A stretch of 64,000 nucleotides of DNA from Candidatus Marsarchaeota archaeon (lineage in GTDB: Archaea > Micrarchaeota > Micrarchaeia > Micrarchaeales > Micrarchaeaceae): the NCBI GenBank assembly GCA_023473665.1, contig JAMCYM010000002.1, positions 1 through 64,000 on the forward strand, given 5' to 3'. The position numbers are program-made. Positions 60,001 to 63,000 of this stretch are shown piece by piece. Each line of letters starts with the position of its first letter. The stretch's first letter is position 1.

Positions 60001-63000
60001 ATGAGAAGATAATATCTTCGGTTTCAGTCGGCAAAGCGCTTTCCGTAAAGAAAGCTGCGGAAATATTTAATGACGAGCTCCTGAAGCACCTCAACAATTT
60101 CATGAAGTTTGGCGGTTACCCTGCCGTTGTGGCAGCGCGCAACGAGGAAGAAAAGGTCATCTTGCTAAAGAATCTGATTAACACGTACCTGGATCGTGAC
60201 ATCTTGTCGTTCCTCCAGATTACTGACACTATAAAGTTCAGGAAACTGATGACCCTTCTGGCCGCGTCCGACGGTTCGCTTATAAAGATCGAGAAGTTCG
60301 CAAACGAGATAGGCAGCTACTTCGTGGAACTTACTAAGTTGCTTGATGCTTTAGAGCAGACGTATGTGATACGCAGGATCGGCCCATACCACAAGAATAA
60401 AGTCACAGAGTTGAGGAAAGCGCAAAAGACGTATTTTGTAGATACAGGCCTGCGAAATCTATTGGTAGAAAACTTCTCCAGCCTGGAAAAGAGACCCGAT
60501 GCCGGAGCTTTGGTAGAGAATTTTGTGCTAAATGAGCTCTATCCCTACTGCACGCTGCGTTTTTGGCGTACAACGATGAAATCCGAAGTTGATTTTGTCG
60601 CAGAGCACAAACAGCCGCTGCCTATAGAGGTGAAGTTCCAGCACTATTCCAAGCCTGAACTGACAAAGAGCCTGTACGGATTTTTGGACGCATACAAACC
60701 AAAAGAATGCATCGTCATTACTAAGGATTTCTGGGGAGAGCGCCGCGTTGCAGGTTCAAAGATAACCTTCGTGCCTGTGGTATACCTATAACGGCTTCAG
60801 CCCCTGTACTTGAGCATTGCTGCCACTCCGCCGAAACCGAGGAGAAGCTGCTTGCCGTACTGGCTGTCAGACGAAACGAACACGACATCAACGCCGTTTT
60901 TGTCGGCCAGCTCTATGAGAAGCTCTATTGCATCCTTGTCGCTTACTATGGCGAGGCTGCCTCCGCAGTCGTGGTGTGTCTTTCGCTCGTTGCCGCGCTC
61001 TATCTCAGATAGCTCTGCCCCACAGTTGCTGCACTTGTAACTGACCTCGTAGAGCTCCGCATCGTCGCTTATGATGAGCTTCGATACGTTGTTGCTCATG
61101 AGCGCAGCCTTGACCTTCTCGTAGCCGCTCACAGCCAAGCCGTTCCTTGCGACCTCGCTCATGAACTTCTCCATCACGTTGCGCTCCTGCGTTACCGCCT
61201 GCTCGGAAAGCAGGTCCTTGGCGTGCTCAAGGAGCTCGCGCGCCCCCTCATTCTCGTCGGTATAGCCGGTGTCGAATACGCCAAGAACCTTTATCTGGTA
61301 GTTGAGCACCTTGGCCCTGACGAAGTTGTCCTTCGTCGGCCCCGGGCCACCTACTATGAGCCCCTTCGGCTTGAACTCGTACTTCGCGAACATGTCGTTT
61401 ATCGTATCGCCTACCACTTTGTAGTAATCGTCTATGCTCTCCTCCCTTGCCCTGTCGTATCTCGCGGCGCTCTGGCCTCCCTTATGCACCTTCTGGTGCG
61501 CGAAAGAGCGCAGCTTTTTCTCGACGACGAACTGCGTGCCCTTCAGCATCGCCACAGTTGCCTCCCTGCCGTCAAGGAGCACGATCCCGTATATGTCCTT
61601 GGCCTCCATCATGCGCTCTATGGGCTCAAGCAGGAACGACGAGTCGCACCTGTAGATGTTGGCCTTGATCGGCTGCGGCGGCTCCATGGAGAACAGCTCT
61701 ATGTCCGGCTTGGCCTGCTCCTTTGATATGTTGCCGCAGAAGATCGCCAGCCCGTTCTTTGGCGGAGTCTTGTAGAGCTTGAGGTACTGCATTATCTTCT
61801 CGAGCGCCCCCTGGACGTTCAGCCTCGTCGTCTTCGACTTGATGTTCGAAGCTTGACCATGCTCGTCCCTGAGCTTCGCTATCTCGTCTGAGATAAGGAA
61901 GCCAGGCGGTATATAGACGCTTATCAGCTCGGTTCCGGCTCCTTTTATCGATGAGAGCCTCTTGAGCTCCCTCTTGACTTCGTATTCCTGTTTCATGAAT
62001 ATCACGGTTTACAGTTCCAGCCACGCTGCTGATGAATTAGTGCGCATGCGCGCCCTGCGCTAGGCTTTCGCTGCGCCTATGAACTCCTTGCCCATGTAGG
62101 GCACGAGCGCCTTCGGCACGGTTATCGTGCCGTCGCCGTTGGCGTAGGTCTCTGCAATCACCGCAAGCGCACGCTCTATCGATATCGCGGTGGCATTCAA
62201 GGTGTGCACGTATTTGCGTTCTCCCTTGTCGTCGTATTTTATGTCAAGCCTCATGCTTTGCCAGTCCGTGCAGTCCGATGCGGATGTTACCTCCCTGTAA
62301 TTCTGCTGGCTCGGGAACCATCCTTCAAGGTCGATCTTCTTGGCCGCCACTATCCCTATATCGCCCGTGCACATCTCGATGACCCTGTATGGTATGCCAA
62401 GCTTCTGGAAAAGTTCCTCCTCGTTCGCTACGAGCTCATCGTAGAGCTTCCATGAATCTTCCTGCCTGCAGAATATGAACTGCTCCACCTTGTCGAACTG
62501 GTGCACTCTGAATATCCCTTTCGTGTCCTTCCCGTGCGATCCTGCTTCGCGCCTGAAGCAGGGGCTTACCCCAACATACCTGAACGGCAGATCCTTAGCC
62601 TGCAGCAGTTCTCCGGCATGCATCGCCGCCATGGGGTGCTCAGACGTGGCTATCAGGAACAGCTCCTCGTCGTTTTCGGTATCCGAGCCGGCCTCTTTAG
62701 GCCTTCCACCTACATACAGCGCGTCCTCGAAGTCGCCAAGGCCTGTCACTCCCTTGTAGTACTCCCTTTTCATTAGGTAAGGCGTCTGGACCGGAATATA
62801 GCCTTTTTTAGCCAATTCATCAAGCGCGAACCTTTCAAGCGCTTTTGCCATGAACACAAGGTCGCCTTTCAAATAATAGAACCTGGCGCCTGCAACCTTT
62901 GCGGCACGCTCTATATCGACAAGACCGTTTTTCTCCAAGAGCTCTGCGTGCCCTTGCGACATGCCGCCTTTCGGCTTGCCCCACTTCCTGATTTCCACAT

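Follow-up and report, generated by a model that had tools for sequence, protein, structure and literature searches.

The ribosome-splitting ATPase ABCE1 (Rli1), which is described as universal and as essential for splitting ribosomes after translation, is not found in the micrarchaeal genome analysed here or in any other genome of its order, Micrarchaeales, a group of very small symbiotic archaea, and its partners aRF1 and Pelota are retained. An earlier note on this DNA had claimed both the absence and the retention, and both claims stand (ABCE1 in 0 of 248 order genomes; Pelota in 168 of 178 order genomes; aRF1 in all 11 order genomes of a panel and in the own genome). The own genome (G000) comprises 779 kb in three contigs, and the window, which is the whole 64,000-nucleotide stretch of DNA that was analysed, carries the following genes.

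60797..62005, minus strand: aRF1 release factor (TIGR03676 match, 446 bits), with the GGQ motif intact
8253..9281, plus strand: Pelota/aDom34 (TIGR00111 match, 189 bits), which ends ...IASIV with no terminal LR(Y/F) and has N280 at a mapped Fe-S contact
7524..8147, minus strand: DedA/UptA-like membrane protein gene, divergent from pelota, which stands where ABCE1 often lies in other Micrarchaeota

The nearest genus-named relatives of this aRF1 are records of Micrarchaeum and Mancarchaeum with 72-74% identity, which fits the placement in Micrarchaeales given by the earlier note. ABCE1 was not detected in the own genome by a six-frame search with NF009945, by a profile of six Micrarchaeota ABCE1 sequences or by tblastn; the matches to ABCE1 queries are only single-domain ABC ATPases, SMC and ferredoxins, the best of which reaches 70 bits against a cut-off of 469. 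Additionally, a twin-NBD Fe-S protein is absent from the six frames of G000 and of G037, a fully read genome of the order in which tblastn also did not find ABCE1. A homodimeric substitute formed from single-domain ABC ATPases was rejected, as these proteins are SufC and two transporter ATPases that adjoin membrane-protein genes. A loss of Fe-S assembly as the cause was rejected, as SufB, SufC and an Mrp/ApbC carrier are present. The own assembly is gapped, in that an outgroup gene identified by eye as the RFC small subunit matches only the RFC large subunit in it, and the claim of absence therefore rests on the relatives.

A search of 401 genomes of the phylum with NF009945 (E<=1e-40) reveals ABCE1 in 197 of the 223 Micrarchaeota outside the order and in none of the 178 order genomes, which comprise 93 genomes of family f1, 83 of f2, one of f3 and the own genome. 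At E<=1e-28, the counts are 0 of 248 order genomes with a completeness of at least 50% and 0 of 86 with at least 90%. As a check on gene recovery, the same set of 401 genomes was searched for Pelota, which is present in 168 of 178 cases inside the order and in 214 of 223 outside it, and poor recovery is thus not the explanation of the zeros. In these large searches, scoring was limited to the 3-5 best candidates of each genome; when a profile that includes divergent ABCE1s was applied to five single-contig genomes of the order and every candidate was scored, it returned only other ABC ATPases, at no more than 82 bits. The genomes counted are kin and not independent of each other, and the large samples take in G028 and G197, which are flagged as unpublished and on neither of which any claim rests. 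We are highly confident that the loss in the order is real, and because no ABCE1 gene is found in any order genome, a single early loss in the common ancestor is likely.

The earlier statement that other Micrarchaeota keep ABCE1 applies to most of them but is not general, as ABCE1 is also missing from family f16 (0 of 7: G050, G092, G167, G230, G273, G304 and G391), genus g79 (0 of 3) and genus g82 (0 of 2). A recheck of five of these genomes scored every candidate. Pelota is kept in all three groups although ABCE1 is not found. Because g79 and g82 belong to families that have ABCE1-bearing members, several losses within Micrarchaeota are likely, with their independence resting on family labels. 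A divergent ABCE1 clade is present in families f10, f11, f15 and f18 (for example, loci L007-L011 in G113, G355, G145, G018 and G337) and shares families with some ABCE1-negative genera. Its members are approximately 545 residues long and 33-39% identical to canonical ABCE1; they keep the eight Fe-S cysteines, and both NBD2 and the helix-loop-helix region of NBD1 carry deletions.

ABCE1 adjoins pelota in four of six ABCE1 loci inspected and lies within 1.5 kb of it in 3 of 9 canonical genomes. A DedA-like gene stands beside pelota in 9 of 12 order genomes, and an ABCE1 remnant is not seen at the pelota and DedA/UptA-like locus. Immediately 3' of pelota, an AT-rich island (38% GC; window 9281-14661) contains several unannotated ORFs. 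The window begins with the 3' part of a 16S rRNA gene (1-1166, plus strand) that continues from the end of contig C2; an insertion of approximately 510 bases (216-725) in this gene, likely an intron, harbours a 150-residue ORF (272-724) with no Pfam match. Elsewhere in the genome, the MCM gene contains an intein (G000:C1:120532-123699, minus strand).

The known substitutes for ABCE1 are not found either, as the earlier note had held for HflX and bacterial RRF: HflX (TIGR03156) is detected in 0 of 101 genomes and RRF (PF01765) in 0 of 5, four of which belong to the order. The absence of HflX is DPANN-wide rather than specific to the order, as file 5 of PMC5498576 lists it in 0 of 15 DPANN genomes. 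The MutS_V domain and the ABCF interdomain linker are each found in 0 of 5 genomes, and a third aeRF1 paralogue is not found in G000 or G037. Among 73 proteins with a P-loop-like motif, the 50 NTPase-type proteins that were scanned belong to known non-recycling families or to no family. A second EF1A-like GTPase (C3:251367-252578) was rejected as a substitute and is read as CysN because it adjoins CysD and scores as CysN/EF1A-like. Also rejected were a 918-residue double AAA protein, a TPR-AAA protein, a 747-residue P-loop protein, a DEAD-box helicase and YchF, all of which have strong matches in the ABCE1-bearing genome G102.

The factors that act on separated subunits are kept. aIF6 is found in 141 of 151 order genomes; SUI1 (aIF1), SBDS and NFACT (RqcH) are each present in 5 of 5 genomes; and aIF2-gamma, aIF5B and aEF2 are present in the own genome, in which Shine-Dalgarno-like motifs precede 37% of starts vs 12% in a control zone. 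The subunits are probably still separated in the order. Since no known substitute is found and the separated-subunit machinery is kept, including Shine-Dalgarno use, an undescribed route is a reasonable conclusion, which bears out the suggestion of the earlier note that recycling proceeds by an unknown route; that route may need no new protein. Genus g34 (G035, G067, G078 and G267) shows aIF6 in 0 of 4 genomes and appears to be without both ABCE1 and aIF6.

According to Table S2 of PMC6813808, the ABCE1 Fe-S domain contacts yeast eRF1 at residues 299-300, 303-304 and 399-401, and residues 409-411 contact the stalk-base rRNA in the ABCE1-bound state. These positions were mapped by hand from the yeast model through an alignment to PDB 4CRN; the intein-containing aRF1 of G145 was left out of the sequences compared. 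By this hand mapping, three of the seven Fe-S-contact positions are shifted in aRF1 and four of seven in Pelota, and the rest are unchanged. An acidic residue at yeast position 304 is present in the aRF1 of 9 of 12 ABCE1-bearing genomes and only 2 of 12 order genomes, and in the Pelota of 10 of 13 and 2 of 12, respectively. The residue at 399 in aRF1 is L, M or F in 11 of 12 order genomes vs 0 of 12 ABCE1-bearing genomes, and E393, which lies close by and has no listed contact, is replaced by Y, L or V in 11 of 12 order aRF1s. The own aRF1 accordingly has K294 at a mapped Fe-S contact that is acidic in 9 of 12 ABCE1-bearing relatives, L386 at another that is never L, M or F in the 12, and, near the contact, Y380, which is E in 11 of 12; in the own Pelota, N280 replaces an acidic residue. 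The new aRF1 residues (Y/L380 and L/M386) are conserved hydrophobics, which would suit a new partner better than decay.

The C-terminus of Pelota differs as well. The terminal RY, or LR(Y/F), is lost in 16 of 16 order genomes and kept in 13 ABCE1-bearing genomes (with R in 12), and in 4 of 4 ABCE1-bearing genomes on long branches Pelota still ends in Y. However, the RY end is also kept in 6 of 6 ABCE1-negative genomes outside the order. The motif is additionally linked to eRF3 binding in PMC2613156, so its loss need not concern ABCE1. The changes in aRF1 and Pelota may have arisen once ABCE1 no longer had to be bound. Some of the signal could, however, be plain drift on a long branch, because positions 303, 400 and 401 show no shift between order and ABCE1-bearing genomes and the largest aRF1 shifts lie outside the mapped contact positions. 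In three aligned f16 Pelotas, the YG motif has its conserved Y replaced by K, and the RY/F end is kept. In the aRF1 of G145 (L110, G145:C12:4679-7399), an in-frame intein of approximately 510 residues with HTH and LAGLIDADG domains interrupts the protein close to GGQ, at position 174/175 of the 403-position model.

On the ribosome itself, erosion of the 30S docking site is not seen in uS12. Its residues Q76 and H100, which PMC7196836 names as ABCE1 Fe-S contacts, occur in 16 of 16 genomes of the order; they are invariant in all 38 aligned rows, and their retention therefore says little. The P1 stalk tail is intact, and eS6 and eS24 are present. In an alignment without the 3' end of the own 16S rRNA, G037 and G102 have 16S 3' regions of similar length. 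In G000 and G037, the PRK..WT stretch is missing from the subunit bridge protein eL24, whose Pfam match extends no further than position 50 of 66 in 16 of 21 f1/f2 genomes vs 0 of 34 outside, which may point to a weaker subunit interface in the order. However, eL24 is normal in the one f3 genome and in the ABCE1-negative lineages outside the order, and three long-branch genomes outside the order also score low. Two genes of G102 (L192:9990-10145 and 10944-11105), identified by eye as eS27-like and Nop10-like, have no match in G000 or G037; S27e is reported absent in Mia14 (PMC5498576).

Starting from the observed absence of ABCE1, the retained factors and the changes in aRF1, Pelota and eL24, we tentatively favour, at somewhat short of an even chance, a recycling process without a dedicated splitting ATPase, in which the subunits part and are trapped by aIF6 and aIF1. 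In this scheme, aEF1A would bring aRF1 or Pelota to a 70S ribosome whose subunits are weakly coupled, the factor so delivered would loosen it, and the anti-association factors aIF6 and aIF1 would then trap the parted subunits. Dom34:Hbs1 alone, or initiation factors at low Mg2+, can split ribosomes in vitro, although such Rli1-free dissociation is a slow or low-Mg2+ side route in cells that still need Rli1. These in vitro results, the kept factors, the missing motor and the 70S of Sulfolobus, described as intrinsically unstable in PMC6124641, all argue for this ATPase-free reading. Against it, the same paper reports that the 70S of Thermococcus stays unsplit in vitro when ABCE1 is left out; the missing aIF6 of g34, the intact uS12 residues and P1 tail, and the normal eL24 of the f3 genome and of the outside ABCE1-negative lineages also weigh against it.

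The main rival, a new or co-opted motor that docks on the remodelled aRF1 C domain or pulls the mRNA, is possible, yet we consider it rather doubtful; Hel308, aEF2 with an unrecognised adaptor, aSelBL and an unannotated order-specific protein are candidates for it. The conserved hydrophobic substitutions at or near the former aRF1 contact patch are consistent with such a partner. Slh1/ASCC3, which acts in RQT, is a Ski2-like helicase, as is Hel308 (G000:C3:303774-305897, minus strand), which is found in 17 of 17 order genomes, in 12 of 12 genomes of f10, f11 and f15 (where ABCE1 is canonical, divergent or missing) and, with one query at E<=1e-60, in 0 of 17 genomes of families with canonical ABCE1 only; eleven families sampled beyond the order and f10, f11 and f15 gave no match. 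Nevertheless, Hel308 is assigned to a known DNA helicase family, occurs beside ABCE1, shows no unusual conservation (rank 138 of 471) and is not matched in ABCE1-negative f16 (0 of 4 with a single-protein query, E<=1e-60), and its pattern may reflect one ancestral loss. Within the order, 164 of 178 genomes have aSelBL, as do 7 of 7 of f16, but 99 of the 223 genomes outside the order also give aSelBL-like matches, not inspected singly, and none are listed for g79 or g82; being widespread outside the order, beside ABCE1, it was rejected as an exclusive replacement, and the family has a disrupted G domain according to PMC3037878. Neither protein is a one-for-one replacement of ABCE1. A comparison of G000 and G037 with contig C1 of G102 yielded 178 candidate proteins that G000 and G037 share and that G102 lacks or matches only weakly. 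Of the 56 scanned, aSelBL and Hel308 were plausible as replacements and 24 fall into no Pfam family, which leaves room for an order-specific motor, although the screen used one outgroup contig. A 403-residue protein (G000:C2:110787-111998, minus strand) with no Pfam family is shared with G037 and has no match in G102 C1; its Atlas look-alikes are only unnamed archaeal clusters, and an Atlas look-up of two unannotated shared proteins gave no function. A third kind of recycling, neither ABCE1 nor RRF, with an unrecognised factor or a Hel308-like motor on the newly hydrophobic aRF1 patch formerly bound by the Fe-S domain, is conceivable, although we would not expect it; since ABCE1 was likely dropped several times in Micrarchaeota, such a route may be latent in archaea generally.

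The remaining explanations dispense with splitting or with the loss itself. The post-release 70S might drop its tRNA and mRNA or slide to the next start (re-initiation or leaderless initiation), and Shine-Dalgarno use is indeed lower in G000 (37%) and G037 (33%) than in ABCE1-bearing G102 (51%), in a comparison of three genomes with a home-made gene caller. However, TATA-like boxes immediately before the starts, which would point to leaderless transcripts, are not commoner (70/554 and 60/482 in G000 and G037 vs 195/824 in G102), by which a leaderless shift was rejected, and the subunit-acting aIF1, aIF2, aIF5B, aIF6 and RqcH are kept; unsplit reuse is thus unlikely. Host contact and cytoplasmic bridges are known for such symbionts, and an import of host ABCE1 through cell contacts would agree with the intact ABCE1-bound uS12 residues and P1 tail. 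This explanation is very unlikely, as imported ABCE1 would have to keep pace with each termination event in 60 genera with many different hosts and as aRF1 and Pelota have changed at the mapped Fe-S contact, and the uS12 residues, invariant as they are, carry little weight. Finally, an ABCE1 that is too divergent, split or on unassembled DNA might have been missed: a divergent clade exists elsewhere, the large searches score few candidates, the own assembly is gapped, and 3 of the last 96 columns in the part of PMC12892359 Dataset S7 listed score 1. We regard this as scarcely credible, as the divergent ABCE1s still exceed 360 bits, the inclusive profile stays far below this in the five single-contig genomes, no twin-NBD Fe-S protein is found in the six frames of G000 or G037, and control genes are recovered at 93-94%.

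The earlier note had also stated that previous papers give no mention of the absence, which agrees with term look-ups in the main texts and not with the supplements. The main text of PMC5498576 has no match for Rli1, recycling or translation, and that of PMC12892359 has none for 'translation'; the zeros are nevertheless tabulated in the supplements of both (2017 and 2025). In files 4 and 5 of PMC5498576, arCOG00187 (Rli1) is 0 for Mia14 and positive in 11 of 15 DPANN genomes, and it is also listed in file 6. In the part of PMC12892359 Dataset S7 available, it is zero in genome columns 39-53 (15 genomes, among them two with the label Zaosheniarchaeales), and of the last 96 columns 93 are zero as well. 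Three small supplement files of PMC7414124 contain no match, and its large tables may bear on the point. One paper that pairs ABCE1 with DPANN does not mention the loss in the passages available, and a published discussion of ABCE1/Rli1 loss in Micrarchaeota was not found in the openly accessible papers searched. The zeros of the tables agree with those reported here, whereas no control, mechanism or co-evolution analysis is seen in the portions of those sources consulted. The absence has thus been tabulated before; the partner changes are new, as putative signs of co-evolution in the ABCE1 partners aRF1 and Pelota.

An order without ABCE1, some members of which are in co-culture, is a natural knockout in which archaeal-eukaryotic ribosome recycling without a power stroke is testable, as are the question of what aRF1 and Pelota do alone and the existence of an unknown splitting factor. 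The loss is relevant, too, to what a minimal translation set must contain and to the question of why the recycling factors of the two domains are unrelated.

Compared with recycling by ABCE1/Rli1, the order keeps aRF1, Pelota, aEF1A, aIF6, the uS12 contacts, eS6, eS24 and the P1 stalk, but is without the ATPase with its two [4Fe-4S] clusters and twin NBDs, and it has changed A-site factors and a Pelota without the terminal RY. The bacterial RRF/EF-G and HflX systems likewise demonstrate that subunits can be split without ABCE1, and the order has aEF2; in contrast, RRF (0 of 5) and HflX (0 of 101) are not found here. With RQT (Slh1/ASCC3) and MutS2, the order has in common the Ski2-like Hel308 and RqcH/NFACT, whereas Hel308 is of the single-cassette DNA-helicase type with a putative ribosome role and MutS_V is found in 0 of 5 genomes. 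Dissociation by Dom34:Hbs1 or initiation factors needs only factors that are kept in the order; it is a side route elsewhere, whereas here it would be the sole route.
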